From: Escherichia phage KKP 3954
Sequence record: OR067838.1
Direction: 5' to 3' (one strand)
DNA: 64,000 nucleotides
Shown: piece by piece, positions 9,435 to 61,142 of the stretch
How the letters are laid out: every line of letters starts with the position of its first letter
Numbering within the stretch: the stretch's first letter is position 1
Made by a program: the position numbers and the translations under genes
Notes under the pieces: model-generated
What the model saw: the letters and a program-made list of their open reading frames with translations, nothing else
Databases searched by the model: none
Told to the model about the DNA's origin: nothing

Positions 9435-10254
9435 TCAAAGACTATTTTCAAAGTTTTCTAGGGCGATCCTTTTTTCTTCCTCTGTCGGCTGATAATCAGG
9501 AAAAGCATCAACACACAACAACGGCGGGATCTCTTCATACTCTTCCTCTTCCGTTGTCTCCTCGTCTTCCTCCTGGGCTATGGCTGCAATTTTGGCTAAT
9601 TTTCTCTCCGCTTGAATCAGTTTACCATCAAATACGTTTTTTGCCATGTTGTAAGCGGTCCAGGTGATGCGCTTACTTTCTAGTGCTTCATCAAGCGCCG
9701 CTATCTTGCTGGGGTATTCATCCAGGACACGAAAAGCCGGATCAACTTTGTATACAAGGGATTATCTTTCGCACCGTCGCTCGCATCTTCCGCACTGGAT
9801 AAATCAGCGTTACCATTTGCCAGCCAACCAGGGCGCACATAACGCGCTTTTACGTTGCCGTTACTACGTGCTAATCTGTTACCTATTTGCTCCCCGCTAT
9901 AGCCCGTGGATTCATCGACAAGATAATCAGGAATGATGCGCGGATCATCTGCTTCATGTTTTACCCAAGACTGGATCACATATTCGCGGCCCATATTAAC
10001 CACCTTTTTTTCAACAATCGGCATACTTTAAAAAGACTTGCTGAATCCTTGCAAGGGTAGAAAGATGTACGATAGTCACGTACGCCAACCTTGCGGATCT
10101 CGATGTTCTCGCATGTTGTTTGATCAAAAATATTTATTTCATCACGCCCCCTTATATAAACATAATGGGGATGTATTAACGCATACTTTGCTAATCTGTA
10201 AAAAGCGTTATCCTTGAACGCGATCACGTGACCTTTTAATTTGATGTAAAACAT
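9435..10254 (-). CDS. Hypothetical early protein with acidic C-terminal domain; one gene split into three track ORFs (9976..10254, 9701..10024, 9435..9647) by two apparent 1-nt deletions (T7 run 10005-10011; GTATAC 9750-9755)
   Basis: Only the first ORF has promoter, leader and SD (ATG 10254); the internal ATGs lack an SD; reading continues without stops after a -1 shift at each junction; C-terminus is Glu/Asp-rich. Confidence 0.5.
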
Positions 10255-14234: not shown

Positions 14235-14311
14235 ATCTAACAATTATCTCCCTATTAAACTGAAATCAATATAACAAAACCCGCCGAAGCGGGTTTAATA
14301 AGGGAGCCTTA

Positions 14312-15478: not shown

Positions 15479-15811
15479 TTACTGTAAACTTTGCAGTTTT
15501 TTCTCACTCTTAATATTCTTGATTAATAAATACTCTCCTCCAGGTGCATCTTTGTATTGTTTAATAGCTACTATTTCATTTTTGCAAGTAGCTATAATCG
15601 AATAAAAAGGACGTTCCGTGTTATCTTCTTTTCCTGTATATGCCTCAACATCTTTGCACTCTTCTAGAACACCATTCCCAGGTGTATAGTAAAACTTGTT
15701 GCCTGTGATCACAACATCTTTACCAATATCCGTTTTAACTGCTACAAATTTTTGAGCGTAAGTGGTGAAGCTTACGGTAGCCAGCAATGTGGCTAAGATT
15801 AATTTTTTCAT
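15479..15811 (-). CDS. Small secreted protein (signal peptide)
   Basis: ORF track 15479..15841; ATG 15811; N-terminus MKKLILATLLATVSFTTYA. Confidence 0.55.
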   Translation of the reverse strand: MKKLILATLLATVSFTTYAQKFVAVKTDIGKDVVITGNKFYYTPGNGVLEECKDVEAYTGKEDNTERPFYSIIATCKNEIVAIKQYKDAPGGEYLLIKNIKSEKKLQSLQ

Positions 15812-19873: not shown

Positions 19874-20076
19874 ATGTTAGTCAGTGAAATACTACCTGAC
19901 TCTAATGGTAATCAGATCACTGTTGATTGGTTTCCTGGTATTAATGGTATACACTAGATCTAACTGCTGAATGGTCTGGTGATATTTATGGAGAAGGTGT
20001 ATTATCATTGTCTACAGAACAAATGATCATCCTTCGTGACTTCTTAATTAGTTTAGATCTAGGAGAAAACAAATGA
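19874..20076 (+). CDS. Small hypothetical protein, apparently interrupted by a 1-nt deletion at GTATAC 19947-19952
   Basis: ATG 19874 with SD AGGAGAG; frame stops at 19955 while the -1 frame runs to a TGA overlapping the next ATG; break window 19945-19954. Confidence 0.4.
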
Positions 20077-30304: not shown

Positions 30305-30961
30305 ATGACAATAAAACATATCTCTTTTGATGTATGGAATACTCTTATTTCTGCCAATCAAAACTATGCAGATGCACGTACGCACACTATTGCCACATAT
30401 GGTAGAATGTCTGAACGTGCCGCAAAAGAAGCATATAAAGATGCCAAAGAAATTATGGATAATGCTGCACTAAATGGGTGTGCAGAAGGTGTAGCATATG
30501 CATGGAATATGTTGGGAAGAAAGATAGGTTTAACCCCTGTAGAATCTGCACAAATGCGTTTTGAGTGTGAGCAATGGTTTCTTAAATTTCCTCCACATAT
30601 TGCTTTAGATTTGCCAGTTTGTTTGCTATACTTGTCTGGTAAATATGATCTTAGTATTAAAAGCAATACTAATTTTATATCTGGGGATATTTTGCGTCGT
30701 GCTTGCATGTTTGATAGTTGGAATTGTTTTGAATTTATGCATTTTTCAGACGAACATTTGTTGTGTAAACCAGATCCTAGATTCTTTGTTAGGACCGCAA
30801 CATATTCAAGCATTCCTTTGAAGGCTGAAGAGATTTTACATGTTGGGGACAGCGAAGAATTTGATGGAAAATGTGTTGACATAGGGATTAACTTCTGTCA
30901 TATTAAGAACCCTAACGACTTACTAGAGAAACTTAAAAGAGGAGAAATTGTAAATGCGTAA
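30305..30961 (+). CDS. HAD-superfamily hydrolase-like protein
   Basis: N-terminal ISFDVWNTL (HAD motif I variant) and later HVGDS; ORF track 30284..30961 trimmed to ATG 30305. Confidence 0.45.
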   Translation: MTIKHISFDVWNTLISANQNYADARTHTIATYGRMSERAAKEAYKDAKEIMDNAALNGCAEGVAYAWNMLGRKIGLTPVESAQMRFECEQWFLKFPPHIALDLPVCLLYLSGKYDLSIKSNTNFISGDILRRACMFDSWNCFEFMHFSDEHLLCKPDPRFFVRTATYSSIPLKAEEILHVGDSEEFDGKCVDIGINFCHIKNPNDLLEKLKRGEIVNA

Positions 30962-30990
30962 TCAAACTCAAATTTTTGCAAATAAATTTG

Positions 30991-31782
30991 ATGACACTGG
31001 AAACTGCTACTTTTGATATCAAAGATTATTCAAAATTGAAATTTGGTAGTAACCAAGCTGCGCGTCGTATGGGTAAAGAATTGGCACTTCAGTTTTTTGC
31101 TCAAGTGGCAATGAAACATATTGGGGAACAATTTGTTATCATTCCTTCTCCTTATAACCATGTGCATAATGCTGCAACAATGATGACAGATCATTTTATT
31201 AATTACTTTAATATGTTGCAAGCACAATATGATCAAGGTCGTTCAGCAGAACTGGATATTATTCATCGTAAAGTTAGCTATATCAACGATTATGGTTTCT
31301 TGGATAAAGCTAGTCGTAAGAAACTTATTGATGGGGATACATTCTACTGCAACAAAGAATTCTGGGGTGATAAGAAGCTTGTGTTCATTGATGATGTAAA
31401 TATCACTGGAACTCATGAAGACAAACTAATTGAGATTCTTGATGAAAATCAAGTTAAAAATGATGTTTACTTCTTGTATTTTGCAAAATATGAAGGTAAT
31501 CAAGCAGATACCGAAGCTAAGCTGAATTTTAACTATATTAATACACCAGAAGCGTTTGTTAAAATGATTAATGAAGAACGTGATGCACAGTGTCTTGTTC
31601 GTCCTATTAAGTATCTTATGGGCCAAAATCATGAAGACTTCAAAATCATTCTTAGCCAATTGCCACACTACTATGTGGAACAACTTTTCTTCGGCTGTTT
31701 AGCTGAAGGCTACAATCGAATTGCAAAGTATGCTGAAAACTTTGAGTTCTTGGATCGCTACACAAAACAACATATTCTGTAA
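30991..31782 (+). CDS. Phosphoribosyltransferase (PRTase type I)-like protein
   Basis: PRPP-binding motif KKLVFIDDVNITGTHEDKL; start ATG 30991 or TTG 30976. Confidence 0.5.
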   Translation: MTLETATFDIKDYSKLKFGSNQAARRMGKELALQFFAQVAMKHIGEQFVIIPSPYNHVHNAATMMTDHFINYFNMLQAQYDQGRSAELDIIHRKVSYINDYGFLDKASRKKLIDGDTFYCNKEFWGDKKLVFIDDVNITGTHEDKLIEILDENQVKNDVYFLYFAKYEGNQADTEAKLNFNYINTPEAFVKMINEERDAQCLVRPIKYLMGQNHEDFKIILSQLPHYYVEQLFFGCLAEGYNRIAKYAENFEFLDRYTKQHIL

Positions 31783-31795
31783 TAAGGAGCTAAAA

Positions 31796-32269
31796 ATGCT
31801 TAAAATGAAAACAGGTAATCTTATTGATGCCGCTAAAGCAGGTGAAGTAACTGTTATCGCTCATTGTTGCAATTGTATGTGTAATATGGGGGCAGGTATT
31901 GCCCCACAAATCAAACGAGCATTTCCTTACGCATATGCAGCAGACTTAGACACAATGGCTGGTGATCAAAGTAAACTAGGTTGTTTTAGTTTAGGGGTGC
32001 CAGACGAACAATCAGACCCTTTGGTATATAATCTATACGGGCAATACCGTTACGGATACAATGCTAAAGGTCGTCAGTTGGACTATGATGCACTTTACGA
32101 TGCACTAATAGCTATGGCTAATGATTTGCTTCTCCGTGACCAAAAATGTAAGATCGGCTTACCTATGATTGGCGCTGGACATGCTGGAGGTAATTGGGCT
32201 ATCATCCAAGTGATGATTGAAGAAACTTTAGTAAAAACAGGTCACGATGTGACTATTTATAAACTTTAA
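31796..32269 (+). CDS. Macro-domain protein (ADP-ribose binding/processing)
   Basis: VIAHCCNCMCNMGAGIA and GLPMIGAGHAGGNW blocks fit the macro-domain Gly-rich loops; SD AAGGAG. Confidence 0.55.
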   Translation: MLKMKTGNLIDAAKAGEVTVIAHCCNCMCNMGAGIAPQIKRAFPYAYAADLDTMAGDQSKLGCFSLGVPDEQSDPLVYNLYGQYRYGYNAKGRQLDYDALYDALIAMANDLLLRDQKCKIGLPMIGAGHAGGNWAIIQVMIEETLVKTGHDVTIYKL

Positions 32270-32281
32270 GAGGAGATTAGT

Positions 32282-32503
32282 ATGGGTGTTTTTGCAGGTA
32301 TTGTTGCAGTGGTAAGCTTTTTTGTTATTGCTTTTATGCTTAGTTTGATTCCAGCTTGGTTATTGTTGCTGGCTTACAACTATGTTGCTGAAGTTATGGG
32401 TCATGCAGATATCACTGTCCCAGTAACCTTCTGGACCGTGGTTTGTGTTTCGTTTATTCTGGCTGTATTACGAGGAATCTTTTCCTCTCATTCAACAAAA
32501 TAA
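32282..32503 (+). CDS. Small membrane protein (two TM helices)
   Basis: ORF track; hydrophobic throughout. Confidence 0.5.
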   Translation: MGVFAGIVAVVSFFVIAFMLSLIPAWLLLLAYNYVAEVMGHADITVPVTFWTVVCVSFILAVLRGIFSSHSTK

Positions 32504-32506
32504 GTG

Positions 32507-32534
32507 TTGACATAGTTCTTAAAAAGAGTAAGAT
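32507..32534 (+). promoter_or_regulatory. Early-family promoter (TTGACA, 16 nt spacer, TAAGAT) with GC stem-loop leader (32546-32564) upstream of the TerC gene
   Basis: Same promoter-leader architecture as the left-end early genes, here on the plus strand. Confidence 0.5.
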
Positions 32535-32584
32535 ATATCACATGAAGCGGGGAATAGTTCCCCGCAAAGAGAAAGGAGAAAATA

Positions 32585-33559
32585 ATGCAACTTGGTTTCC
32601 CAATCATTGATGTAGTTGTTTTAGTTGGTATTTTAGCATTGTCTATTGGTATCGATTTCTTTGGTCATAAAGAGAATAAAGAAATTGGAATTAAATCTGC
32701 TTTGCTTTGGTCTGTTTTTTGGATTGCTTTAGCTTTAGGATATTACGCATTCATTTGGGTAGAACATGGTAAAGAGTTTGCCGCGCTTTTCCTAAGTGGC
32801 TATGTGTTGGAAAAGAGTCTTTCTGTAGATAACCTAATGGTGTTCATGGCAATTTTTGCAAGCTTTGGAATTAAGAGCACACATCTCCAACATAAGATTT
32901 TACTTTGGGGGATTGCAGGAGCCATTGTCTTCCGAGGTATTTTTGTTGCAGCAGGCACCGCTTTGTTTAACCTTCATTGGTCGGTCCAAGTGTTGTTCGG
33001 TTTGATTGTAGCTTGGTCTGCCGTGGCTATCATCAAAGGTGGTGATGAAGAAGAGGATATCGATTACTCTAAACATTGGGCTGTTCGTTTAGTAGGTAAA
33101 GTTCTGCCTGTGCACAATGCACTGGATGGTGAAAAGTTCATCACCATTAAGAATGGTATTAAATATGCAACTCCTGCTCTTCTTTGTGTGTTTGTTATTG
33201 AGCTTACAGATATTGTCTTCTCTTTTGATTCAGTTCCGGCTGTGATCGGTGTGACACAAGAACCTGTGCTAGTTTATTCTGCAATGCTGATGGCTGTTCT
33301 TGGTTTACGTGCACTTTTCTTTGTGTTAAGTGTAGCTGTGAAATATCTGGTTCACTTAGAGAAAGCTGTTGCTGTGGTTCTGGTGTTTGTTGGTGCTAAA
33401 CTTATGTATCACCCGTTCGGTGAAACACTTCATGCCAAGTGGTCATTCCTCCCGCATGATATTTCCCCTAACGTAAGTCTGATGATTGTTCTAGGCACAT
33501 TAGCTCTTGGTGTTATTGCAAGCTTTATCTTCCCTGAAAAAGAAGAAGCTGCTGTTTAA
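32585..33559 (+). CDS. terC: TerC-family integral membrane protein
   Basis: 324 aa, multi-TM; conserved LSVDNLMVFMAIF and ELTDIVFSFDSVPAV blocks. Confidence 0.7.
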   Translation: MQLGFPIIDVVVLVGILALSIGIDFFGHKENKEIGIKSALLWSVFWIALALGYYAFIWVEHGKEFAALFLSGYVLEKSLSVDNLMVFMAIFASFGIKSTHLQHKILLWGIAGAIVFRGIFVAAGTALFNLHWSVQVLFGLIVAWSAVAIIKGGDEEEDIDYSKHWAVRLVGKVLPVHNALDGEKFITIKNGIKYATPALLCVFVIELTDIVFSFDSVPAVIGVTQEPVLVYSAMLMAVLGLRALFFVLSVAVKYLVHLEKAVAVVLVFVGAKLMYHPFGETLHAKWSFLPHDISPNVSLMIVLGTLALGVIASFIFPEKEEAAV

Positions 33560-33565
33560 TAGATG

Positions 33566-33590
33566 AGCCTCCTTCGGGAGGCTATTTTTA
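33566..33590 (+). terminator. Rho-independent terminator after the TerC gene
   Basis: AGCCTCCTTCGGGAGGCT hairpin plus T-run. Confidence 0.65.
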
Positions 33591-33602
33591 TAGGAGAGAC
33601 TT

Positions 33603-33953
33603 ATGAGCAATTTTGATGAAATTCAAAAACTTGTTTGGGATTTACCTGGTGATGTTGATTACGTTTCAGATTATCTTTCAAAAGTTTACCTTGGGGTAAG
33701 CGTTATGATTGTGACCAAAGATCCAATTAACCTTCCTCCTAATGTAGTAGCTTGTTGTGGAAGTGGTTCAGGAGAGGTAGAACCTGTATCTCGTTGGGAA
33801 TTAACCAAGGCTGTTTCAAAACGAAACGGCGAAGTTTTGAATATTGATATCGAACAAATCTGGACTTCTCCAGCCGCCAAGTGGAATGATCCTAATGGTT
33901 GGGATTTGTTCTTCTGGGATAATGAAACTGATGATGAGGTATTTTTAAAATGA
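33603..33953 (+). CDS. Hypothetical protein
   Basis: ORF track; SD GGAGAGA. Confidence 0.55.
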   Translation: MSNFDEIQKLVWDLPGDVDYVSDYLSKVYLGVSVMIVTKDPINLPPNVVACCGSGSGEVEPVSRWELTKAVSKRNGEVLNIDIEQIWTSPAAKWNDPNGWDLFFWDNETDDEVFLK

Positions 33954-34195
33954 AATACTTGTTGGTTGTGTTTGAAAATATTTGTTTTGCAATAGGGTTG
34001 TTTGTTGTAATTTTTGTATTGACAAGCGTAATCAACGGCAGTAAAGTGAGTTTATACCGAGATGGAGAGCAGCTTTATTGCTTCTCTGGAGATTTCAAAC
34101 ACAGATGTATTAATAGTCAAAACGAGGAAAGCAAATATGAAAAAACTAGCCCTGATTTTAATTGGTTGTATCTTTTTAACAGCTTGCGAGGATGA
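33950..34195 (+). CDS. Small membrane protein (single TM); 3-prime end overlaps the lipoprotein gene in another frame
   Basis: ORF track; the true end is uncertain. Confidence 0.35.
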   Translation: MKYLLVVFENICFAIGLFVVIFVLTSVINGSKVSLYRDGEQLYCFSGDFKHRCINSQNEESKYEKTSPDFNWLYLFNSLRG

Positions 34196-34574
34196 AACAA
34201 ATCCTACACAATATCAACAACCTCCTCAACAATACGCTCAACAAGGATCTGACGGAGATACAACTATTATCAACAATGGTGGCGGTTCTAGTAGTAGCGG
34301 TGTTGGTGAGTTTGCTACAGGTATGTTGTTAGGACATATGATGAGCGGTGGTAGTAATCGTAGCGGCGGGGATTATAACGATAACAGAACGATTATTAAT
34401 AAACATTATAACACACCTAAACCGAAAACTAATTTTTATGGTAAGCCTAAACAAGAGATAAAAACTTATGAAAAGCCAAGACAAACTTTTAAAACAAATA
34501 GCAGCTATACAACTCGTAAATCTTACAATAGCCCTTTAAGTAAAAAGAGTTCATCTCGTAGCAAGCGACGTTAA
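34137..34574 (+). CDS. Lipoprotein (signal peptide with LTAC lipobox; Gly/Ser/Asn-rich; basic C-terminus)
   Basis: ATG 34137 with SD GAGGAAAG; N-terminus MKKLALILIGCIFLTAC. Confidence 0.55.
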   Translation: MKKLALILIGCIFLTACEDETNPTQYQQPPQQYAQQGSDGDTTIINNGGGSSSSGVGEFATGMLLGHMMSGGSNRSGGDYNDNRTIINKHYNTPKPKTNFYGKPKQEIKTYEKPRQTFKTNSSYTTRKSYNSPLSKKSSSRSKRR

Positions 34575-34588
34575 TAAGGAGAAAAATA

Positions 34589-35182
34589 ATGACAATTTCT
34601 ATTCGTACTTCCATCGTAGGTGTTAAAAGGTTGCCTAATGCTTTGCAAATCACACGTGCTTTGAGGGATACGTTCTCTGCTGTGGATGAGCATAAGATGC
34701 TTGATAATCTGTCAAATTGGCCCTATTTTCATTATTTTAAAAATGAAGACGACGAGTTTATAGATGCTGTTTCTTATGGTTATGATTTCGGTAAGGAGGT
34801 TTCTCCTGAAGAATTTGTAGCTACGGTATTCCCAAATGGTTTCCCTACTCGCAGTAAACGTAAAAAAGGACCAAAAAACAAGAAACGTGCTACTAATAAA
34901 GCTACCATTTTCTTTACTGATGGGACACAGTATACGATTAAAGATTTTGAAGAAGTATCTTATACAGCAGGTGGGAATCTTTCTTTCTACACCATCAAAA
35001 AACAAAACTCTACGTTCAGCCATGTTTCTAACATGATTGAAATGTTAGTAGAAGATATTGAAAGCGTGGCTGTGTTAGGTATGCATAAAAGCTTTTTAAT
35101 TACAAATATTTCAGATTTCAGTGCACGTTTATCTGGCCCTGATTTTGAAGCCACGACCACGCATTTCACTTTTAAGGTGTAA
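34589..35182 (+). CDS. Hypothetical protein
   Basis: ORF track; SD AAGGAG; in-frame GTATAC at 34930 with no break. Confidence 0.55.
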   Translation: MTISIRTSIVGVKRLPNALQITRALRDTFSAVDEHKMLDNLSNWPYFHYFKNEDDEFIDAVSYGYDFGKEVSPEEFVATVFPNGFPTRSKRKKGPKNKKRATNKATIFFTDGTQYTIKDFEEVSYTAGGNLSFYTIKKQNSTFSHVSNMIEMLVEDIESVAVLGMHKSFLITNISDFSARLSGPDFEATTTHFTFKV

Positions 35183-35185
35183 GTT

Positions 35186-35776
35186 ATGTATACCGAGAGA
35201 GACTTGCAACTCTTGTGGTGGGAAGTGATGCAGGAAATAAAAGAAGATTTTCCTGTTTACTACAACATGTTACGTGAAGCAGGATATAAAGCTTGTGTTA
35301 GAAACAAAGTGAATAACTCTTTCGGTTGGTGCAACTACCGAGATAAAATTGTTGTTGTAAATTGGCACTTGCATAAGAACTCTACAAGAGATATGATCGT
35401 GGATACAATGAAGCACGAAATTGCTCATGCTATTGATGGTTGTATGGGTAAGTTTAGTCGGCACGGTGCTCATTGGCAAAAACTGGCAGCAGAATTAGGG
35501 GCTAATCCTAAAGCCACTTCCAAAGAGCCGTTGAACCACGAATATAAATATGTTCTTGTTCTGGTAGATAGGTTTGCGACAAGATGTGTTAGAGGTTATA
35601 ATCGTAAACCTAATCGCATGTACCCAGGTAAGCAACCTAATATGTGGTTGAAATCAGATAAAGAAGGGACCGAAGGAAAATTATGGTTGTATAAATGGGA
35701 CGATTGGGTTAAAGTAGCTAAAGAATACGGTGTTTCACCATATATAAGAGATGCAGAAGAGGAGAATGAAGAATGA
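35186..35776 (+). CDS. SprT-like zinc metalloprotease-domain protein
   Basis: HEIAHAI (HExxH) followed by HGAHW, as in SprT-like domains. Confidence 0.55.
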   Translation: MYTERDLQLLWWEVMQEIKEDFPVYYNMLREAGYKACVRNKVNNSFGWCNYRDKIVVVNWHLHKNSTRDMIVDTMKHEIAHAIDGCMGKFSRHGAHWQKLAAELGANPKATSKEPLNHEYKYVLVLVDRFATRCVRGYNRKPNRMYPGKQPNMWLKSDKEGTEGKLWLYKWDDWVKVAKEYGVSPYIRDAEEENEE

Positions 35777-36885
35777 CAAGTCCATTTTTAAAAGCAGCTA
35801 CTGGTGGTCAGAAGAAGCCTGAAATGAGCGTATTTGCTGCAACAACAGATGCAAGTAAATCTGTATTCGCTCCAAGCGTGTTAGATGCCAGTCCTGTTTA
35901 TGCACCAGCGGCACCGCAAGAAGTTCCAGTTTTGCCTTCTATGACCCGACAAGAGATCGAAGAGATTGGGGCAGAGGCAGGAACAACCTTGCGTTCCTTG
36001 AATGCCGAGGTATTAAAACATCAACGTAGTAATCAAGGAGATCAGATGAGTGAACGACTCACAGCTTTGATTAAACAGGCAAAACAACTTGATCCAAACT
36101 CTATTAAACAAAGCAAAGGTATTACTAAACTCATTAAAAAAGTTATGGGTATGAAAGAAGACCTGTTTGGGGAGTTTGATAATGTTAATAACCGTATTGA
36201 AGAGTTGGTAAAGAACCTTCAAATGGATATTCGCAAAGAAGAAGATTCCTTGGTATATCTTGAAAAGCTACATCAAGCTATTGGACAATATGCCGCAAGT
36301 TTGAACCGAGATATGCAGCTTCTAACAGCAACCTACGAAAAAGAAGAACAAGCTTTGGCTGCTCTTCCAGAAGATGCGGTAGAACAGCGACAAGTGATCC
36401 GAGATACTTTGGATCTTCTGGAGATTCGTATTGCGGATTTAAAAGCATTGCGCCTACTGTGTGTCCAAATGGGACCACGTGTGCAAGGTATGCAAAAAGT
36501 TTCTGCAAGCTTAATGCGATCTGCGCGTAACATAGTAAATAATGTTATTCCTGCTTACTCTGCTAACTTCTCAATGTATATTGAGAGCTTGCGTCAAATG
36601 AAAGCCGCAGAGACGCAGAATAACGTTCTTGATGAATTTAACCTGGCAATTAAACTGGGTAGCGATCTTGCCACACAGAATCAGATCGAAGCAGCAGCAC
36701 TGGCTAACCGTCAAGTGTTGGATATTGAAACTCTGCGTCACGATCAGGAAAACTTGGTTAAGATGTTGGAAGAAACTAACCGCATCAATACGGAAGCCCG
36801 TGCTGCTCGTGTTGATTATATTAATGAAGTTCAATCTCTGGAAGACGGGATGGTAGCTGCTGTGAAACGAGGGCTTGGTAAATGA
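35773..36885 (+). CDS. TelA-like (toxic anion resistance family) protein
   Basis: 370 aa, long predicted coiled coils; size and Ter-cluster context fit TelA; assignment from context and composition rather than a sharp motif. Confidence 0.45.
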   Translation: MTSPFLKAATGGQKKPEMSVFAATTDASKSVFAPSVLDASPVYAPAAPQEVPVLPSMTRQEIEEIGAEAGTTLRSLNAEVLKHQRSNQGDQMSERLTALIKQAKQLDPNSIKQSKGITKLIKKVMGMKEDLFGEFDNVNNRIEELVKNLQMDIRKEEDSLVYLEKLHQAIGQYAASLNRDMQLLTATYEKEEQALAALPEDAVEQRQVIRDTLDLLEIRIADLKALRLLCVQMGPRVQGMQKVSASLMRSARNIVNNVIPAYSANFSMYIESLRQMKAAETQNNVLDEFNLAIKLGSDLATQNQIEAAALANRQVLDIETLRHDQENLVKMLEETNRINTEARAARVDYINEVQSLEDGMVAAVKRGLGK

Positions 36886-37077
36886 GAATCCGTATCTATA
36901 TAATTGATGAAGACATTGGTGTCCGTTATGATGACGAAAAACGATTCGCACCGATGGGAGGCATATACCCCCAAGTGTTCTAGCAGTTTGTCGTGATTGT
37001 TATATTTATGAAGGTTGTCGTAACTTCCGTAAATTCGAACTCCTTGCAGATATTGACTTCAATGAGGAGGAGGAGTA
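36882..37077 (+). CDS. Small Zn-ribbon-like protein, apparently interrupted by a 1-nt deletion in a C5 run (36968-36972)
   Basis: ATGA coupling at both ends; 33-codon ORF stops at 36981 while the -1 frame encodes CRDCYIYEGC..EEEE up to a stop abutting the next ATG. Confidence 0.35.
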
Positions 37078-37251
37078 ATGAAAATATTACGAGTGAATAT
37101 TGAAACTGCTTGGTGTGGATGTAATGAGGTTGTGGATATCGAAATTGAAGATGATATGTCTCAAGAGGATATAGAAGATCTTGCGCACGAAACCTTTCAG
37201 GACTATTGTAATTACGGGTTCCATATTTTAGAGGAGGAAGAGGATGTTTAA
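37078..37251 (+). CDS. Small acidic Cys-containing protein (57 aa)
   Basis: Not in ORF track; SD GAGGAGGAGGAG then ATG 37078. Confidence 0.4.
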   Translation: MKILRVNIETAWCGCNEVVDIEIEDDMSQEDIEDLAHETFQDYCNYGFHILEEEEDV

Positions 37252-37447
37252 CTACGATAACGATCCTAATATTATCCAGTTAACCCGACAAGAACTGATC
37301 ACAATCATTGAAGATGCTTTTATTGATGGCTGGAATACACAAGATAATGACTGGGGTGGACCTGAAGCTTTTCTAGAACATCATAAAGCGTATGGAGAAT
37401 TTTGCGAAACCACTGTAGCTCTTGATAATCTGAAGGAGGGTTTGTAA
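37244..37447 (+). CDS. Hypothetical protein
   Basis: ORF track. Confidence 0.5.
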   Translation: MFNYDNDPNIIQLTRQELITIIEDAFIDGWNTQDNDWGGPEAFLEHHKAYGEFCETTVALDNLKEGL

Positions 37448-38282: not shown

Positions 38283-39079
38283 ATGTCCGAGAAAATCAGC
38301 CTGAAAAAACGTCAAGAAAACCTTGCTTTCTCTCTGAAAAAGAATAAGAACCTGAACGAAGGTAAGATTGTTCTTCGTGTAGCATGTGCTCTAGATATTT
38401 CTGGTAGTATGCATGGTCTATATACTCGTGGGGTAGTGAGTGATTTTGTAGGTAAACTGCTTCCTTTTGGTATGCTGTTCGACGATAATGAACAAATTGA
38501 CATGTGGGCCTTCAATACGAGTTCTCAAGAGCTTACTCCAGCAACAGCAGACGTTTACGATGACTACGTTGGTAAATGTATGCGTAATGTTCGTATCGGA
38601 GGTGGAACAAATTACGCCCCTGTAATGGCAGATATCTACGATGAGTATTTTGGCACTGTTACCAAATATGTTACCACTAAACAAGTGGTATACAAGAGGA
38701 GGCTCCAAAGAAAGGCTTCTTTAATCGTCTGCTTGGTAAAACTGAAACAGTATCGGTAGAGCGTGAAAAAGTTGTAGCTGTATCTGAACCAGGTGCTGAT
38801 GTTACTCCTGGCGTTGTATTCTTCCAGACAGACGGTGAGAATGGTGATCCTAGTGCTGTTCGTCGTCTTATTGAAGAGAATAAGAATAAGCCTATCTATT
38901 GGTTCATGGTTGGCGTTGGTAATGAGAAGTTCAGCTTCCTGAAAGAACTGGCAAATGCTTATGACAATGTTGGTTTTATTGGCATTAAAGATTTAGACTT
39001 GACAGATTCAGAGCTTTATGACAAACTCTTATCTGAAGAGTTCGGAGAGTGGGTTGTTAAAGTAGGTGCTAAAAAATGA
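38283..39079 (+). CDS. von Willebrand factor A (vWA) domain protein, TerY-like; split by an apparent 1-nt deletion at GTATAC 38688-38693
   Basis: MIDAS motif DISGSM in the N-terminal part (track ORF 38283..38759); vWA C-terminal half (VVFFQTDGENGD...WFMVGVGNEKF) continues in the -1 frame to a stop at 39077-39079. Confidence 0.6.
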
Positions 39080-47261: not shown

Positions 47262-48056
47262 TTGAGCAAGTTGAACACACTTGATCAATATTACACTAAC
47301 CCCGCTTATGCGGGGTTCTTATGTGATAAGATCAAAGAAATTTTTGGAGAGGAAGCTAACTACGTAGAACCATCTGCGGGAGAAGGAGCTTTCTCTTCTT
47401 GTTTTAAAAACATAACTTCTTTTGATATTGACCCTAAGTTTGAAGATTGTATTGAGGCAGATTTTTTAGCTCAATCTGTTGAGTCTGTTGGTAGTGTAAC
47501 TGCTTTTGTCGGTAATCCTCCATTTGGAAAAAATGCTAGTCTTGCCATTAAATTCTTTAACCATTGTGCTGAAATGCTGGATAACGAAGGTGGTATTTGT
47601 TTTATCTTGCCTCGCACATTTCAAAAAATCTTTTTTGCACACAAACTAAATCCCCATATGCATCTTCTTTACGAAGAAGAATGTCCAAAAGGATCTTTTA
47701 TTCTTCATGGAGAACCTTGGGATGTTCCTTGTGTATTCCAGATATGGATTAAACGCAACGAGAAGCGTTCTCCCGTTGTTTTAGGAGAGAATCGACTATT
47801 CGTATTAGGTAACAGTAAAGACTACGATATAGCCGTTAGGAGAGCGGGAGCAAGTGCAGGTAAAGTGTTATCAGAAGAAGATTCTTTATCTGAAGCATCT
47901 ACCTATTTTTTAAAAGCCTTGACTTCTGATCTTAAAACGCGTATCATTGAGGCTTACCCGTTACTTAAAGCTGAAGCTAGTAAAACTGCGGGAGTAAGAA
48001 GTTTAAGTTTAAAAGAACTTCAGTGGGTTCTGGAGAACATTAGAAAGGAGGAATAG
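47262..48056 (+). CDS. DNA N6-adenine methyltransferase (gamma-class-like)
   Basis: Motif I-like VEPSAGEGAF followed by motif IV GNPPFGKN; TTG start with SD AAGGAGG. Confidence 0.65.
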   Translation: MSKLNTLDQYYTNPAYAGFLCDKIKEIFGEEANYVEPSAGEGAFSSCFKNITSFDIDPKFEDCIEADFLAQSVESVGSVTAFVGNPPFGKNASLAIKFFNHCAEMLDNEGGICFILPRTFQKIFFAHKLNPHMHLLYEEECPKGSFILHGEPWDVPCVFQIWIKRNEKRSPVVLGENRLFVLGNSKDYDIAVRRAGASAGKVLSEEDSLSEASTYFLKALTSDLKTRIIEAYPLLKAEASKTAGVRSLSLKELQWVLENIRKEE

Positions 48057-50653
48057 TGAGTAAGTTTACATGGGATATTGAAGCAAACGGATTGTTGAAT
48101 AATGACACTATTGATTATTTAGCTAGTCCTTATCGTCTCAAAGACACATTTCAAATGCACTGTATTGTCTTAGAGAACCATGAAACAGGAGAAATAGTAG
48201 CTTTCCACGATGGCCCTAAATACATCTTTGATGGGCGTCCTTATGAAGAGTCAGATGGTAAATACACATATGTTCTTAAAGAGTATGTGGCGCAAGATTA
48301 CACACATTTTCAACTAAAAGATTTCCCAGACTTTATTAATCATGAAGGTTATTTTAAAGATAAGCCTGAATATCTGGTTGAAATGGCTGTGGCTCACAAC
48401 GGTATCAACTATGACTGGTTGGCTACAAAACTGTTTTATGGTTTAGATTACAGTGTTAAATATAATACGTGGGGCAAAAATAAGGTAAAACTTATTGACT
48501 CCTTGATTTTGAGTAAAGTGTTAAACCCAGATCGAAAGATTGAGGGCAAATCAGGACATAGTTTGGCAGCACTTTCTCGAAAGGCAGGGGGTGATGTAAA
48601 AATAGATTTCCGTAAAGAGATTCCAGAAGAAGATCGATTTAAGACTTTTGCTGCTGATATGCTTTATTACTGTATCTATGACAACAAAGCCAATACGAGC
48701 GTATATAATTACCTTATGGAAGAATGGGGTGATTATGATAAATGGGAAGGTCCATTTGAACTTGAACAACGTGTAGCAGACATTATTACACGCCAGGAAC
48801 ACCGTGGGTTTGCTTTTAACATGAAGCAAGCAGAAGAGAACCTTGCTTTTTTGGATGCAGAAATGGAGCGTCTTCGTTTACTCGTTGAGCCTATTTTGCC
48901 ACCTAAACCAGCAACAAAAGGTTATCTTAAGGCTTTTATTCCACCTAAGTTGCAAATTAAAAAGAACTTAGAGCCAACTAACCATATGATCAATTTTGCT
49001 AAGAAACATGATGGTCATTTGGAAGAGAGGGATGGAGATTGGTGGTTAGTGATGTTGGGGAAAGAATGGAAACTGCCAGTTGCAGCAGATGAGCCTTTGT
49101 GTGATCCTAATATCCCTGCAACATTGAACGATACTACCCATATTAAAAACTGGCTTGTAGGATTAGGTTGGGTACCGTCTGAATATAAAGATAAAGACTT
49201 GACTCTTAAATCTGGCACCAAGATTAAAAAGAGCGAGGAAGAACTTCAGAAAGGTATTCGAGCTTACGTTGAGCAAACTCTATCTTCTAATTTTTGTCAG
49301 GATCGTTGTGATCATCTGGAGTGCACACCGGAAACCTTGGAGAGGAAGATTCAAGAGCGTATAGCAAAAGGTAAAGGTCGCGGTCTTAAAGTATTGACTA
49401 ACCCATGTTTTACCAAAGGTCAGGAAAAAGAAATTTGTCCTAACCTGCAAGCTTTGGGTGAGAAATTTCCTTATGCTACACAGATTGTAGAATACTTAAC
49501 GTATAAACACCGTAGGAACTCTATTTTAGGTGGTGGTGCCGATTGGGAAGAAGACGAAGAAGATCAAGAATACGATAAAGGTTTCTTAGCCGCAGTAAGG
49601 GCGGATGGTCGTATTCCTACCCCAGCCGCTACATGTGATGCTGCAACCTCTCGTATGAAGCATAGATCTGTAGCTAATATTCCTCGTGTCACATCTTTGT
49701 TTGGATGGGAGATGCGTAACTTGTTTGGTGTAGAGGTTCCTAAATACTTCCAGATTGGCTACGACTTCGACTCTTTGGAAGCAAAAATTGAATCACACTA
49801 CTGTTGGCGGTACGAGCCGGAGCCACACGAATATTGTAACGCTCTGTTGTTAGAGAAACCTAACGATGTTCACACAATGATGGCAAAACGTATCACTGAA
49901 ACTATTGGACGTAAATTTGAACGTAGTCCTGCTAAATCTGTTAAGTATGGTATTACCTATGGTGCACAAGCCGACAAGGTTGCTAAAACAATTGGTAGCG
50001 ATAAGTTTACAGGTCAGTTGGTGTTCGATGCTTTCTGGGAAGCTGCCTTCCCACTGGCACGTCTTAAAGAACGTTTAAACGATTTCTGGGTTAAAACTGG
50101 TAAACAATATGTTTTGGGTATTGACGGTCGTAAGGTTCCTACTCGTTCTGCTCACGCGATTCTTAACTCTTTGTTCCAAAGCGGTGGGGTTATCTGTGCT
50201 AAACGTGCAATGGTTATTTATGACGACATGATCGAAGAAGAAGGGCTAAGTGTTGACTTCTTTAAAGATGACTGGAAGAATAAAGACTTCGTGCAACAAA
50301 TGATTGCATACCACGATGAAGCCCAGCTTGAAGTTTCTCGTAACCTTGTAGAATTCAAATGGTTTTCACCTGAATCATTAGGTTGGAAGAAAGTAGACGA
50401 TCCTGAAGAACAAAAGAAAATTGATAAAGAATGCCTTGCTAAAGTCGAAGAATGGAAGCATAATAAGGAAAAAGAGACAGGGCAAATTTGGGCTAACATT
50501 CATGAATCTCCCAAAGGTGGATGGTTTACAGCCTATAGTCGGGCAGGTGAACTTGCTGCTTTAGCTGTTACTAAGGCTGGAGAATTTTACAATCTTAACG
50601 TTCAGCTTACTGCCGGATATGATGTGGGTAATTCTTGGGCGTCCTGTCACTAG
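48056..50653 (+). CDS. DNA polymerase, family A, with N-terminal 3-5 exonuclease domain
   Basis: 865 aa; Exo I WDIEANGL; motif A DFDSLEAKI; motif B RSPAKSVKYGITYG; motif C YHDEAQLE. Confidence 0.85.
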   Translation: MSKFTWDIEANGLLNNDTIDYLASPYRLKDTFQMHCIVLENHETGEIVAFHDGPKYIFDGRPYEESDGKYTYVLKEYVAQDYTHFQLKDFPDFINHEGYFKDKPEYLVEMAVAHNGINYDWLATKLFYGLDYSVKYNTWGKNKVKLIDSLILSKVLNPDRKIEGKSGHSLAALSRKAGGDVKIDFRKEIPEEDRFKTFAADMLYYCIYDNKANTSVYNYLMEEWGDYDKWEGPFELEQRVADIITRQEHRGFAFNMKQAEENLAFLDAEMERLRLLVEPILPPKPATKGYLKAFIPPKLQIKKNLEPTNHMINFAKKHDGHLEERDGDWWLVMLGKEWKLPVAADEPLCDPNIPATLNDTTHIKNWLVGLGWVPSEYKDKDLTLKSGTKIKKSEEELQKGIRAYVEQTLSSNFCQDRCDHLECTPETLERKIQERIAKGKGRGLKVLTNPCFTKGQEKEICPNLQALGEKFPYATQIVEYLTYKHRRNSILGGGADWEEDEEDQEYDKGFLAAVRADGRIPTPAATCDAATSRMKHRSVANIPRVTSLFGWEMRNLFGVEVPKYFQIGYDFDSLEAKIESHYCWRYEPEPHEYCNALLLEKPNDVHTMMAKRITETIGRKFERSPAKSVKYGITYGAQADKVAKTIGSDKFTGQLVFDAFWEAAFPLARLKERLNDFWVKTGKQYVLGIDGRKVPTRSAHAILNSLFQSGGVICAKRAMVIYDDMIEEEGLSVDFFKDDWKNKDFVQQMIAYHDEAQLEVSRNLVEFKWFSPESLGWKKVDDPEEQKKIDKECLAKVEEWKHNKEKETGQIWANIHESPKGGWFTAYSRAGELAALAVTKAGEFYNLNVQLTAGYDVGNSWASCH

Positions 50654-51289: not shown

Positions 51290-51875
51290 ATCAAAACAAA
51301 TCAATATTGCCAAAGAGATTCTTACCGTATTAAAGATCGCTGATCCTAATTCTGTCTTGGCTGGCGGTGCTGTTCGTGATTGGCGTATTCTTGATATTGC
51401 TGGACGTGATCTGGATTTCTACACATCCCTTCCTGCACATCGATCAGAAGAGCAAATACAAGAATTGATTGCATCTGCTTTGATGGGAACTAATGTTCGT
51501 AAACTAGGAAACAAAGAGGCTTCTGACAATTATGAGGGTGTTACTGGTCTTAAACACGTTTTTGAGTTTGAACGTGATGGTCAGCTTTGCAACCTTATGA
51601 TTATGGAACCAAGCGTAATGACAACCTTTCTAAATGAGTTTGATCTGTCCATCTGCCAGGCTGCATTTGATGGGAAGGATTGCTATTATTCTAAAGATTT
51701 TGAAACAACCTTGGAAACAGGGATCTGCTTCTTGCACAAAGATGTTAGAGAAGATGCCAAACACGTTATTAAAATTGCTACACGTTTCCCATATCTTCGT
51801 TTTGTGAAAGAGGTTAAGGTTCCACGTCCACCTCAAGTAGATACCAGATTAGAAGAAGATGATATTCCTTGGTAA
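51282..51875 (+). CDS. Nucleotidyltransferase-like protein (CCA-adding enzyme / poly(A) polymerase head-domain-like)
   Basis: LAGGAVRDWRI ... RDLDFYT resembles the GGxVRD ... DxD nucleotidyltransferase signature. Confidence 0.45.
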   Translation: MTKSKQINIAKEILTVLKIADPNSVLAGGAVRDWRILDIAGRDLDFYTSLPAHRSEEQIQELIASALMGTNVRKLGNKEASDNYEGVTGLKHVFEFERDGQLCNLMIMEPSVMTTFLNEFDLSICQAAFDGKDCYYSKDFETTLETGICFLHKDVREDAKHVIKIATRFPYLRFVKEVKVPRPPQVDTRLEEDDIPW

Positions 51876-51920
51876 TTAAAGCTTGACAATATTAAACATT
51901 TTATGATAGGATAGCATTCA

Positions 51921-52313
51921 ATGACTGAACGTTCTAAGATAGCTGTTGAAACTGTTTATGGAAACTATACCAGTTTAACACTAGTTGAGAAAAATGTTGT
52001 AGGTCTTGACAACTCTTTTTATTTTCAGATTTTGGTTATTCAAGGTGGAAACAAGAAGCTAACTGCTCGTGTTGAAGCATCTGAAATAATTGAAACCACT
52101 GTTACAAACAAAGAATTCATTTCACTGCAAGATACAATCCGAAACGTTATAGACGAAGAAGGCAAAGCTGCCACAATTAAACTCGGAGGTTTTCCAGTGC
52201 AAATAGTTCATTTCCCTAATGGTGAAATTGGAGTTGGAATAGGTAAAGGTAAATACCTGTTAGAGCAAGATGATATGGAAAGACTCCGCTCTTTCTGTGC
52301 AAAATTAATGTAA
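51921..52313 (+). CDS. Hypothetical protein
   Basis: ORF track; promoter-like TTGACA at 51883; no obvious SD. Confidence 0.45.
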   Translation: MTERSKIAVETVYGNYTSLTLVEKNVVGLDNSFYFQILVIQGGNKKLTARVEASEIIETTVTNKEFISLQDTIRNVIDEEGKAATIKLGGFPVQIVHFPNGEIGVGIGKGKYLLEQDDMERLRSFCAKLM

Positions 52314-52329
52314 TGTAGAGGAGATAATA

Positions 52330-53217
52330 ATGTCCGTAATTAATACTGAAACTGATCGTAAAGGCAAAACCGTAACTTATGCAACTGGTATCGTAGACTA
52401 CGTTAAACTGGATAAATTCGCCGAACCTAAAACTTTTCATTGGGAAGGAAAAACGATTGTTTCAACTCACCGAGCTTCTCTTGTTCTGAAAGAGAAAGGT
52501 GCTAAACCAGATGAGAAAGGTGTTTGGATTTCTCTTGGTGACATTGAACTGAAAGAAGGTTATGAAAACCTGCAAGTCAAAGAAGGTGATAACTGGATCA
52601 CTATTGAAAAAGGTGTAGAAGTAAGTATTGATATTGATCGCGTTGATAATAAAGGCGGTAAAACTTACTACAATACTAAAAAATCTCGTATTACAGTATT
52701 GTCTACCGATGGTGTTCAGAAGTCTAACAAATCTTCTGGCAATAAGGGTTCCAACGATGCTGCTCCTAAGCAGTCCTATAAAAAACGTGATACTGTAGGT
52801 CTGGAAACTGGTCACGCAGTAAATGGTGCACTGGAACTGATTCGTAATGGTGTTAAAGGCGATGCTTTCGATATCGCTGGGGTTGTTCAATCTGCAACTG
52901 TCACACTGAAATCGGAAATTGCTGAATCTCGTGGCGTTGATATTAATGATTATGATCTTGGGGCATCTGTTGGTCACGCTATCCTCAATGCTTGTAAAGA
53001 CCATACCGTTAAGACTGTATCTGTAGAAGATCTGATTGATTCTGCTCGTAAAGTTCTGGCTCTGTCTGATAAAGTTGCTGCTGCCATTCGTGGTTCCGCA
53101 GAACAGCCTAAGAAAGAAGAGAAGAAAGAAGTTAAGAAACCTGAACCACAACCAGAACCAACTCCAAGTAATCAAGAAGAACCTCCAATGGACTTCGACG
53201 ATGATATTCCATTCTGA
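52330..53217 (+). CDS. ssb: Single-stranded DNA-binding protein with host-SSB-like acidic C-terminal tail
   Basis: C-terminus ends MDFDDDIPF, the protein-interaction tail of bacterial SSB; Pro/Glu/Lys-rich linker before it. Confidence 0.65.
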   Translation: MSVINTETDRKGKTVTYATGIVDYVKLDKFAEPKTFHWEGKTIVSTHRASLVLKEKGAKPDEKGVWISLGDIELKEGYENLQVKEGDNWITIEKGVEVSIDIDRVDNKGGKTYYNTKKSRITVLSTDGVQKSNKSSGNKGSNDAAPKQSYKKRDTVGLETGHAVNGALELIRNGVKGDAFDIAGVVQSATVTLKSEIAESRGVDINDYDLGASVGHAILNACKDHTVKTVSVEDLIDSARKVLALSDKVAAAIRGSAEQPKKEEKKEVKKPEPQPEPTPSNQEEPPMDFDDDIPF

Positions 53218-53248
53218 TCTTATTGATTTATAAAGAGTTTTTATAAAA

Positions 53249-53279
53249 GAAAAGGGAACCCGCAAAGGTTCCCTTTTTT
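53249..53279. terminator. Bidirectional rho-independent terminator at the convergent junction between the replication module and the tail genes
   Basis: AAAAGGGAACC..GGTTCCCTTTTTT hairpin flanked by A-run and T-run. Confidence 0.65.
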
Positions 53280-53280
53280 A

Positions 53281-55956: not shown

Positions 55957-55972
55957 TTAAACCCTCCATAAA

Positions 55973-55997
55973 AAGAAAGCCCCTTTCGGGGCTTCTG
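55973..55997 (-). terminator. Rho-independent terminator/attenuator between the two fiber genes
   Basis: AGAAGCCCCGAAAGGGGCTTTCT hairpin plus T-run on minus strand. Confidence 0.55.
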
Positions 55998-58022: not shown

Positions 58023-58083
58023 TTATCTCTCCTATCATTAGACCATTCTATTGGAAGAAGAGGGGGAATCCCCCTCTATTCCA

Positions 58084-61000
58084 TTAGGTTGTTGGCACAT
58101 CTACTACTGGCGTTGGGCGAATAACCGCAGTATTACCTACAGAAACATTACTGGAATCATTAGGTATGGTTTTAATTCTAACTCCAGCACTTGTAGGCGT
58201 TACAATTGGATCTGCAATGTCTATTTTAACTGGGTTAGTCCACGTATCATTATCTTGATAAGGTGCACGAGTAATAACTGTGTCCAAATCTGCTCCACCT
58301 ACGCCAGCACCAGGAATACGGATACGTGTCCCTGCTGACAGAGGGTAATGATACAACCAAGAAGCATTTGTTGCTGTCCCGTTAGGAGTCAAGTTCTGTG
58401 TCAGGAAGGTATCTCCTGCCTGTGTAGCTCGAATACCGAAAGCTGGGATATCTGGAATATATGCCCCACTTGTTGTTACAAGGAAGAACGTATTATCCGC
58501 CTTGACTATCATATCACCTTTGTCAAACTCTTTCCCTGTTGGGAAATGCATTCCATCAATGTTTCGACTAGGATTAGGCTCTAAGTAATAAACTTTGCCC
58601 GTTGTCCCTACAATAGCTCCAATACCACCTGCGATATTGGTATACATATTAGCTTCAACATTACAGTTGACACGATGAATATCCGAGTAACGGCAACGGC
58701 TCCACTGTGGACGACCAGTAACCATCGTCTTGCCATCTGGGTAACAGTTTACGTTAACCATTTCAAGAACAGATTTTTCTCTACGGAAGAATCCATCATA
58801 AAATGTCCCTGGACCAGATTCAGGTTGACCAACACAATCGAAGATATTACAGGTAATGTTAGACATTGAAAGCCAAGAAGCTATACCGAACAACTGCAAT
58901 GCAGCGCAACGAATATTTTCAAAGCTAACTCTGTTTTCATAACCTGGACCAGCGGAAACTCCCGCAAAAACACGCCCAGTTTTGGTGTGAATGTTACGAA
59001 CAGAATAGTTAAAGCATGGATTTGAAGGTCTGCCCTGTGCCGGAACTACCGGATTACCTTCTTCGTCCAGAACTGCGTTAGTTCCCCACTCCAAATAAAT
59101 CATACGGATATTACTTGCAAGTGTGCTACCGTCTGTTTTAGGCTCTCCATAAACACCGTCAATCGTAAAATCTTTACTTCCATACATTACAACTGCGCCA
59201 GTTGCCAAACCTGTCCCAACAGATACAGTCTGGTCTGGATCGCCATGAATGTTTTCGATAGAGATATTACGACCAACTTCTACATGGACAATCTGACGAC
59301 AACGTTTTGCAAAAACGTTACGAATTGTAATATTCTTGCAATATTGATCATCAGGGATTCCGTAACCATATGGTCCTTTACCAGCTACACCGATACCGAT
59401 ACCCCAGTTGGACAGAGGAATAGGAGCGTTAGTCCCATCGATATTAGACAGGTAAATATTCTCAATCACACAACCATCGTCATAATGTTTATTGATGACG
59501 TTCAGTTCTATTGCATCACCTTGCATGTCCATGAAGGTAAGGTTACGGAAGACACCACGTGTTACTGGTTCCCCTGTTCCTTGTTGAAGGATGCCATACA
59601 ACCCGTTTTTAAAAATACAGTTATCAATTTCAAAAATACCTGATATTGGGTTGCCTTGGAATACCAAGCTACCAACTTGACCTGCGCGAGGAGCACCGTC
59701 CCACAAACAATCGAACATGCGCACAGCACCACCCCAATACATAACACGAGAGTTACGGAAAGTTGTGCCTTCTACTGTAGCATTTTGCACACGATAGTCG
59801 CGTTGACCACGGAACACACCCCCACGCAAAGTGATACCTTGAATATCAAAAGAGCTTGTCGTGAAAGTCATATCGCAACCGTAAGCATCGAGAATCTTGC
59901 TTTTCGAAGCTTTTGCTGCTAACAGTGCCGCTTGGAAAGCTGCTTCTGGTGTGGTATATGTTGTTGTGTTGTTAGCAAATTCTGACAAGTAGACAACATC
60001 GAATAAATCGTTGTATGTTCCACCACGAGGGGTTAACAGTCCTTCTGTATTGGTCAGAACCCATGCATTTGGACCTAATCCACCGCTTGTCTCCAATGTA
60101 TCAGAGGCCAAAATACTTTTTGGTAAACTTCCAGCCCAACGATAACGACCAGCACCACGTCCAATCGTCTGATTTTTAGCTGTCAGAGTTACGTTATTAC
60201 CAAAGCTTGTAGGCAAATGAACAAACTGTCCACGTTCAACAGCTAGTGCAGAAAGATCTACAGACCCCCCAGAATAAGTCATTACTCCAGAAACAGACAA
60301 GGATGTTAAAGTTCCTGTGATGTTAGGAGGTAATGTGTAGGAAGACTGTGCTACTGGATCATACAGAGCTTTAATCCCTGTTAACGATTGACCTGCTGTT
60401 GCGTAAGCCACCTCATCATCTAACAAACCATATTTACGAGCAATAGTTTGCAGAGGGACTTTATCCATGCTTTCTGTTAGTTCTTCCGTTTTTGTTTCTA
60501 AACTAACAAGACGGTTCTCTAGATTAGGATCTGTATCTGCTGAAGCTACGATTTTACCAATATAAGCAAAAAGCTTGTTTGGTAGTCCTGTTGCAGGATC
60601 GTGTCCCAAAGGTTCAGATAAGATGATCTTACTATCTTCTATACGGAAAGCTTCTCCCAGAACCTGAATAACACCGTTGATAGTAACAATAGCACTGTCA
60701 AAAATATAAGGAGGACTAATTACTGTTTCATAACCCGTTGCACCAGAATATACCCACGGGGTGACTTCTGTTGCTAATTGTTCTGTTTTCAGTCCCCACA
60801 ATACCCAGTTATTATCCCCTACTGGAGAATACCTTGCATAGGGATTGGGTTTACCAATGTAGCATTAGGAGCATAATAATAACCGCTCAATACCCCATTC
60901 TGGAAATAACGCAGTTGGTTAAAAACCGTTTCATTTGTGCCTTGCGCCCAATCCAATGGACTTTTAAAGAAAAAGTTGTCAACAAGGGCTTTTCTCAGGG

Positions 61001-61139
61001 TTGGTATCAACCCTGATTCTGTTTCAATACTCTCTGTAGCACTTCCATTAATAACATCATGGAGTTGGTTAGACGAGAAAATAACCAGATCTACGCCCTG
61101 TTCAAGAGACGTTGCTGGATATGTTGGGAATGTTGCCAT
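58084..61139 (-). CDS. Tailspike-like protein (probable beta-helix body), annotated as one gene from track ORFs 60819..61139 (106 aa) and 58084..60801 (905 aa)
   Basis: The 106-aa ORF has SD+ATG; the 905-aa ORF begins on TTG with no SD, 17 nt after the TAG and in the -1 frame, which is open back to 60864; composition fits tailspike/depolymerase proteins. Confidence 0.45.
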
Positions 61140-61142
61140 TAA

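Follow-up and report, generated by a model that had tools for sequence, protein, structure and literature searches.

A single missing T breaks a small gene in a Phapecoctavirus genome record that also carries a separate class of breaks at GTAC sites

Among the tightly packed small genes of Escherichia phage KKP 3954 that lie 3' of a TelA-like gene (35773..36885), one is split between two reading frames, and the question that it raises is whether the phage itself carries a broken gene or whether the break belongs to the sequence record. A sequence-only reading of this DNA had described it as a Zn-ribbon gene interrupted within a C5 homopolymer, had attributed the interruption to consensus errors typical of long reads, and had regarded a set of frameshifts at GTATAC elsewhere in the same DNA as events of the same kind. 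The window, by which we mean the whole 64-kb stretch of DNA that was analyzed, is part of a Phapecoctavirus genome (a phAPEC8/ESCO13-like Escherichia myophage) and is collinear with dozens of GenBank phages at ~98% identity. We used comparisons with these relatives, with metagenome and Logan assemblies, and with a second assembly of the same phage to weigh the possible origins of the break and its relationship to the other frameshifts in the window.

The truncated open reading frame of the small gene (36882..36983, + strand) begins with an ATG at 36882 that overlaps the TGA of the TelA-like gene and extends for 33 codons to a TAG at 36981-36983, encoding the 33-aa product MRIRIYIIDEDIGVRYDDEKRFAPMGGIYPQVF. 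The rest of the gene follows on the + strand in the -1 frame, running from 36971 to a TAA at 37076-37078 that overlaps the ATG of the next gene, and encodes PSVLAVCRDCYIYEGCRNFRKFELLADIDFNEEEE (PSVLAVCRDC...EEEE). The gene is therefore broken where the sequence-only reading had placed the break, but it ends at 37078 and not at 37077. In the relatives it is a single annotated CDS of 64 to 68 aa (e.g., HOR21_gp217 of ESCO13), and the intact protein matches phrog_24000, a family of unknown function, from end to end. A zinc ribbon would be recognizable by two CxxC knuckles supplying four ligands or by a match to a family model; the intact 66-aa protein has three cysteines only, in a CxxC-x5-C arrangement (CRDC...C), and a Pfam search with it retrieved no match, leaving phrog_24000 as its sole family match, so that its description as a Zn ribbon is unsupported. 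Toward its 3' end the gene has four consecutive GAG codons (37064..37075, + strand), against five in ESCO13, as part of an in-frame length polymorphism among the relatives. The window lacks one of these Glu codons with the frame kept and, to judge from the 64- to 68-aa versions across the relatives, this loss is a natural length polymorphism. The (GAG)n codons of the C-terminal poly-Glu tract double as the GAGGAG ribosome-binding site for the gene that follows (37078): the GAGGAGGAGGAG stretch sits at the putative ribosome-binding position for that gene, and such a site is annotated there in ESCO13.

Alignment of the intact versions of the gene with the window placed the defect at the junction 36967..36968 (+ strand), where a single T that is found in every intact relative is missing. 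The relatives read GGCATATA[T]CCCCCAAG and the window reads GGCATATACCCCCAAG, by which the codons TAT CCC CCA are converted to TAC CCC CAA. This comparison took in more than 20 loci, some of them copies of one genome, from GenBank, ENA, and Logan assemblies together with two JGI metagenome contigs. The deletion lies in a low-complexity context formed by a (TA)3 stretch followed by the C5 run at 36968..36972. The window and all of the intact relatives agree in the length of this run (GGCATATA-T-CCCCC-AAG in the relatives versus GGCATATA-CCCCC-AAG in the window), and the lost base is the T that flanks it. The earlier placement of the break within this run was thus right in that a C5 stands there and wrong in that the run is not shortened, the missing base being the T on its 5' side. 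Since the number of Cs is unchanged, the break is not a classic run-length error of long reads. Over positions 36500-37000, the window is identical to the intact assembly from SRR24556894 (L017) apart from the missing T, which fits a single one-step event.

We found three alleles at this codon, namely, the intact TAT+C5, a natural frameshift of the form TAT+C4, and the TA+C5 of the window, the last of which was absent from all of the relatives compared, including the two JGI metagenome contigs. The TAT+C4 allele, a true shortening of the run, is present in GCA_019973095.1 (a 148.6-kb contig) and in the Logan assembly of SRR15046814 and yields the same 33-aa product as the window; this exact product is on record in SRR24296944, SRR15046814, and GCA_019973095.1. 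In the C4 genome, all 34 neighboring genes over 20 kb are of normal length and the density of GTAC is normal. The loss of one C in an otherwise clean genome indicates that the gene tolerates frameshifts naturally and that the site may be a mutational hotspot. We also considered a derivation of TA+C5 from TAT+C4, which is unlikely: around the gene, the window is closer in haplotype to the matching L017 than to GCA_019973095.1, and the derivation would need an additional T->C change on a nonmatching haplotype.

The second occurrence of TA+C5 comes from Logan contigs of SRR24296944, which we located by exact-protein look-ups and which carry the private SNPs of the window. Three of these contigs correspond to positions 51330-61158 (9.8 kb, 99.89% identity to the window), 30888-35688 (4.8 kb, 99.92%), and 35729-37362 (1.6 kb, 100%), and the last of them has the same deletion at the small gene within a 1634-nt stretch that is 100% identical to the window; look-ups for contigs spanning 9753, 10011, 15023, and 38691 gave nothing or other samples only. 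The differences between the two assemblies are almost entirely at GTAC sites or in the form of small indels. In the covered regions, the GTACs that the window retains are ATAC or GTAT in the SRR24296944 contigs, except at 35620, where the contig keeps GTAC and has lost the adjacent C; the number of GTACs left in the three contigs is 0, 1, and 0 in 16 kb. Insertions that the window has at 60828 and 30996 are absent from SRR24296944, which consequently has intact genes for the tail spike (1017 aa) and for PRTase_3 (275 aa). These contigs have indels of their own, with A4->A3 at 35239, C3->C2 at 35623 beside a GTAC, and a garbled stretch at 53362-53366, which implies that the underlying reads were indel-prone. 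The simplest reading of these comparisons is that the window and SRR24296944 represent one phage sequenced with noisy long reads that contained a motif unreadable to the basecaller, and the two were probably built from the same reads.

That motif is GTAC. The GTATAC breaks, far from being of one kind with a generic homopolymer error, are motif-specific +2 insertions of TA at ancestral GTAC sites. One of them, at 38688..38693, breaks a 264-aa vWA-TerF-like gene whose truncated product is not on record elsewhere, and the same conversion of GTAC to GTATAC is seen at 3432, 6861, 9750, 13781, 15020, and 19947, with the insertion at 13781 splitting a gene for a CapR-type endonuclease, of which two relatives have intact versions. 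Full-length alignment of the window to three relatives showed that the window has 37 GTACs versus 71-72 in the relatives. Among the GTAC sites conserved in all three relatives, 27/43 are altered in the window versus 2.0 expected (p=8e-26), and in the same alignment no other 4- to 6-mer came near this level of change. The substitutions at GTAC are strongly polarized, 24/26 being G1->A or C4->T (binomial p=1e-5), and none of the altered sites is ATAT, with both ends changed. Examples of the conversion to ATAC or GTAT are found at 27207, 28086, 35725, 40410, 53393, 55604, 56596, 59615, 59636, 62049, and 63130. The ATAC and GTAT outcomes are not interspersed at random but grouped by region (5 runs versus 12 expected; permutation p=0.001). 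These substitutions are nonsynonymous in 16/26 cases versus 31% of the remaining 615 private substitutions that lie in coding context (Fisher p=0.002), and they include Thr->Ile/Met and Cys->Tyr changes in tail and endolysin-like genes. Seven Thr->Ile/Met changes lie at GTAC sites that read NGT ACN across the codon boundary; the genetic code is such that a synonymous T->C in the NGT codon would equally destroy each of these sites. Dam or Dcm methylation was examined as a cause of error and set aside, as 12/265 GATC and 7/75 CCWGG sites are changed, which is approximately background, and an inserted A at 30996 is the only event at a Dcm site. AGTGG emerged as a second enriched motif but, with varied positions of change and no pattern, was treated as noise. 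The 36968 site contains no GTAC and falls outside this motif class.

The expectation that other genes of this assembly hide indels was borne out. We counted 14 frameshifting indels that are private to the window, in that none occurs in the relatives with comparable sequence at the site concerned (2-21 per site); 9 of them are at or adjoin GTAC (p=6e-17), and two, those at 30996 and 60828, are missing from the second assembly. The extra A at 30996..30996 lies inside a CCTGG (Dcm-type) site, shifts the frame of the 275-aa PRTase_3 gene 14 codons after its start, and is absent from 15 relatives as well as from the SRR24296944 contig. At 60827..60832, the window has GAATAC where the relatives have GTAC, a 2-nt insertion that breaks the 1017-aa colanic-acid-degrading tail spike gene, and the SRR24296944 contig reads plain GGAATACC there. 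An A is inserted immediately 5' of the GTAC at 5711. Changes in run length are also found. One is the T7 at 10005..10011, by which the final ~5 codons of a gp164-like gene (- strand) are altered to give a product with no exact match on record elsewhere; others are the differences between the window and the Logan contigs in the A4/A3 and C3/C2 runs noted above. The T7 had been offered as a 1-nt loss of the same polarity as that in the small gene, but seven relatives have T6, which makes it a +1 insertion of opposite polarity. The proposal of long-read consensus errors is thus sustained to the extent that errors are present and that the 36968 break may be one of them, whereas the supposed pattern of losses from homopolymer runs is not.

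Two further disrupted stretches were seen in the course of these comparisons. At 15504-15505, there is a private TC duplication (GTTTTTTC[TC]ACTC), not at a GTAC and absent from seven relatives, as a result of which a 118-aa gene has its final ~17 codons changed. At 19938-19952, two GTAC sites that are 9 nt apart in the relatives (GGTACTGGTACAC) have become GGTATTAATGGTATACAC in the window, with a gain of 3 nt and then of 2 nt, and this particularly garbled stretch destroys a 65-aa gene.

On the whole, the GTATAC breaks look like a separate class of error that arises from modification-induced nanopore miscalls rather than from evolution. They are confined to one motif, and the associated base changes are A/G or C/T confusions. 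One of the Logan contigs ends exactly at a GTAC-derived variant (61158/61159). Under such a mechanism, a base modification at GTAC in the phage DNA would cause the reads of one strand to call RTAC and those of the other to call GTAY, and polishing would then leave GTAC, ATAC, or GTAT. We infer that the merging of top-strand ATAC reads and bottom-strand GTAT reads with a 2-nt offset could generate GTATAC, and the same offset logic would cover the A+GTAC at 5711 and the GAG+AATAC at 60828. Methylation-induced nanopore errors have been described as strand-dependent R/Y (A/G, C/T) ambiguities in reverse-complement motif pairs, and only part of such miscalls end up in the assembly (PMC11610573); unrecognized modifications are also known to lower consensus quality at conserved motifs (PMC10687267). 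The pattern at GTAC suggests that the DNA taken for sequencing bore a modification specific to this motif. Literature searches for Phapecoctavirus together with GTAC, and for the run SRR24296944, found no papers.

The competing view of these sites, to which we attach very little probability, is that the changes are real and that the lineage, attacked by a restriction-modification system with GTAC specificity, has been erasing these sites, with C->T changes arising by deamination of methylated C and GTATAC being the scar left by G^TAC cleavage, 5'-TA fill-in, and religation. The enzymology is apt, as a G^TAC cut of the Csp6I/CviQI type followed by fill-in gives exactly GTATAC. GTAC is also the most underrepresented palindromic tetramer in the relatives (O/E 0.35), pointing to a history of pressure in the genus, and some of the GTAC changes are synonymous. 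In such a scenario, the frameshift in the small gene would be one more lesion tolerated under heavy restriction pressure. Against it, the disagreement between the window and the SRR24296944 contigs is almost wholly at GTAC sites, other substitutions being absent, and the state of the 60828 site precludes descent of either assembly from the other. Selection for the loss of sites also sits poorly with the 62% of changes that are nonsynonymous, among them Thr->Ile/Met replacements at sites that a silent change of the NGT codon would have sufficed to remove, with frameshifts in an AAA ATPase, the vWA protein, and the 1017-aa tail spike, and with the garbled sequence adjoining some of the sites (19938-19952, 53362-53366, and 55171). 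Moreover, half of the GTAC sites remain, so that little protection would have been gained. A milder version retains the GTAC-specific modification, of host or phage origin, for which we found no report in the genus.

Several features of the relatives and of the window touch on restriction and modification more generally. In the homologous region of the relatives L004-L009 (ESCO13, AV125, and ESCO37), a second-order model gave O/E values of 0.35 for GTAC, 0.36 for GGCC, 0.46 for CCGG, and 0.50 for CTAG; such tetramer counts suggest long-term pressure from restriction systems of these specificities. We examined one window-specific replacement region, at 13243-14243, for a GTAC methyltransferase private to this phage and found instead a CapR-type endonuclease. 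This region (- strand) encodes an ~330-aa CapR-type variant where ESCO13 has a 486-aa DUF723/CapR endonuclease, and the variant is also found in SRR6825914, ERR7123925, and ERZ27315363. Beside the DNA polymerase gene, 47262-48056 (+ strand) encodes a 264-aa protein with an NPPF motif that is common to the relatives and has weak matches to methyltransferase families, i.e., phrog_799 (1e-10) and, below the cut-off, Pfam Eco57I. It is a candidate phage-encoded adenine methyltransferase. The adjacent DNA polymerase I gene (48056-50653, + strand) encodes 865 aa in the window and several relatives and 1077-1189 aa in AV125 and several metagenome/Logan contigs; this difference suggests an insertion polymorphism, perhaps due to an intein or homing element.

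Returning to the small gene, we judge it somewhat better than even that the break at 36968 is a long-read consensus deletion error. A single T would have been lost at the (TA)n/C5 junction in the basecalling or consensus of a nanopore-type long-read assembly, and the true gene would encode the intact 65-aa phrog_24000 protein. The missing base itself is read directly from the alignment; we infer, in contrast, the long-read, nanopore-type platform and the basecalling or consensus origin of the deletion. In favor of an error are the 14 private frameshifting indels in the 64-kb window, set beside relatives such as GCA_019973095.1 that have at most one broken gene per 20 kb. Against it, TA+C5 recurs in the SRR24296944 contig, from which the errors at 30996 and 60828 are absent. 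This recurrence is also an argument for the chief competitor, to which we give a substantial but smaller share of belief, namely, that the deletion is real and that the T was lost at the (TA)n/C5 junction, leaving a dispensable small gene as a naturally frameshifted (pseudogene) allele, in parallel to the C5->C4 allele of the other lineage. The identical allele is present in two assemblies of the phage, and GCA_019973095.1/SRR15046814, in which the other genes in 20 kb are of normal length, have this codon broken by C5->C4. Further, the private indels common to both assemblies in the covered regions (32573, 33589, and 36968) resemble ordinary natural variation, while those that are not shared lie at GTAC or CCWGG, and early termination need not be polar because the downstream gene has its own GAGGAG site. 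The force of the recurrence is reduced by the probable derivation of both assemblies from one read set, which would make them nonindependent, and the window demonstrably contains many false frameshifts. True slippage should alter the length of the run, as in the C4 allele, and not drop a flanking T, and TA+C5 is found nowhere else among the relatives compared. The 36968 break is nonetheless the only frameshift in the window with evidence for being real, in the form of the identity with SRR24296944 and the C5->C4 change in an independent genome.

Two other accounts of the break fared much worse. It is quite improbable that the true sequence is TAC+C6, with a private synonymous TAT->TAC change and the run undercalled as C5 by a genuine homopolymer error. 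Such undercalling is the commonest error of long reads, the observed TA+C5 is exactly C6 minus one C, and run-length errors or variants do occur in the window, as is evident from T6->T7 at 10005-10011. Yet no relative has TAC at this codon, and the account needs an extra substitution at exactly this base of a haplotype that is otherwise identical to TAT+C5 over 500 nt. No ancestor with TAC+C6 was found among the loci compared; a pattern scan of IMG/VR gave no matches at all, and a scan of JGI metagenomes retrieved two contigs, both with the intact TAT+C5. Fainter still is the prospect that the frameshift is decoded, i.e., that a -1 ribosomal slip on C_CCC gives the wild-type protein (…IYPPSVLAV…). 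A P-site slip of CCC back onto the preceding C would indeed restore the exact wild-type sequence, and two different frameshift alleles have arisen at the same codon. The site, however, is not a canonical X XXY YYZ heptamer, since in C CCC CAA the CAA cannot re-pair on CCA, and there is no downstream stimulatory structure (MFE z = -0.3). Every intact relative is in frame, and recoding is hence not a conserved feature of the gene. Whether a consensus error or a natural frameshift, the break is ordinary and involves no novel biology.

The biological weight of the break is accordingly small, as it affects a 65-aa protein of unknown function that has already been lost in at least one natural lineage. 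Its setting has more practical consequences, for no fewer than 14 frameshifts and ~25 base substitutions in the genome record are probably false, most of them tied to GTAC. The genes broken or altered include those for the AAA ATPase, the vWA-TerF-like protein, a homing-endonuclease-like protein, the PRTase, and the tail spike, and gene calls, protein sequences (with their Thr->Ile/Met and Cys->Tyr changes), and SNP comparisons taken from this record would mislead. The useful yield of the analysis is a map of probable errors in the genome and a hint of GTAC modification.

Set beside known systems, the break and its surroundings resemble several without coinciding fully with any. A slip on C_CCC that would restore wild-type reading in the window is reminiscent of programmed -1 frameshifting, but the canonical heptamer and the downstream structure are lacking and in-frame genes are the norm in the genus. 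The C5->C4 change in GCA_019973095.1/SRR15046814, at the same codon and with the same 33-aa product, offers a parallel in natural slipped-strand polymorphism, from which the window allele differs by keeping its C5 and lacking the flanking T. As in assemblies with long-read indel errors, the window has a private 1-nt deletion beside C5 and (TA)3 and many other private indels; unlike in such errors, the length of its C5 is unchanged and the allele recurs in a second assembly. The comparison with nanopore modification miscalls (Lohde et al. 2024, PMC11610573; Chiou et al. 2023, PMC10687267) does not extend to the 36968 site, which has no GTAC, or to the 2-nt TA insertions, which are not described in those studies. 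It does extend to the tie of the GTATAC breaks to palindromic GTAC and to the GTAC changes themselves, which exchange purine for purine or pyrimidine for pyrimidine, affect a fraction of the sites, and differ between the two assemblies.
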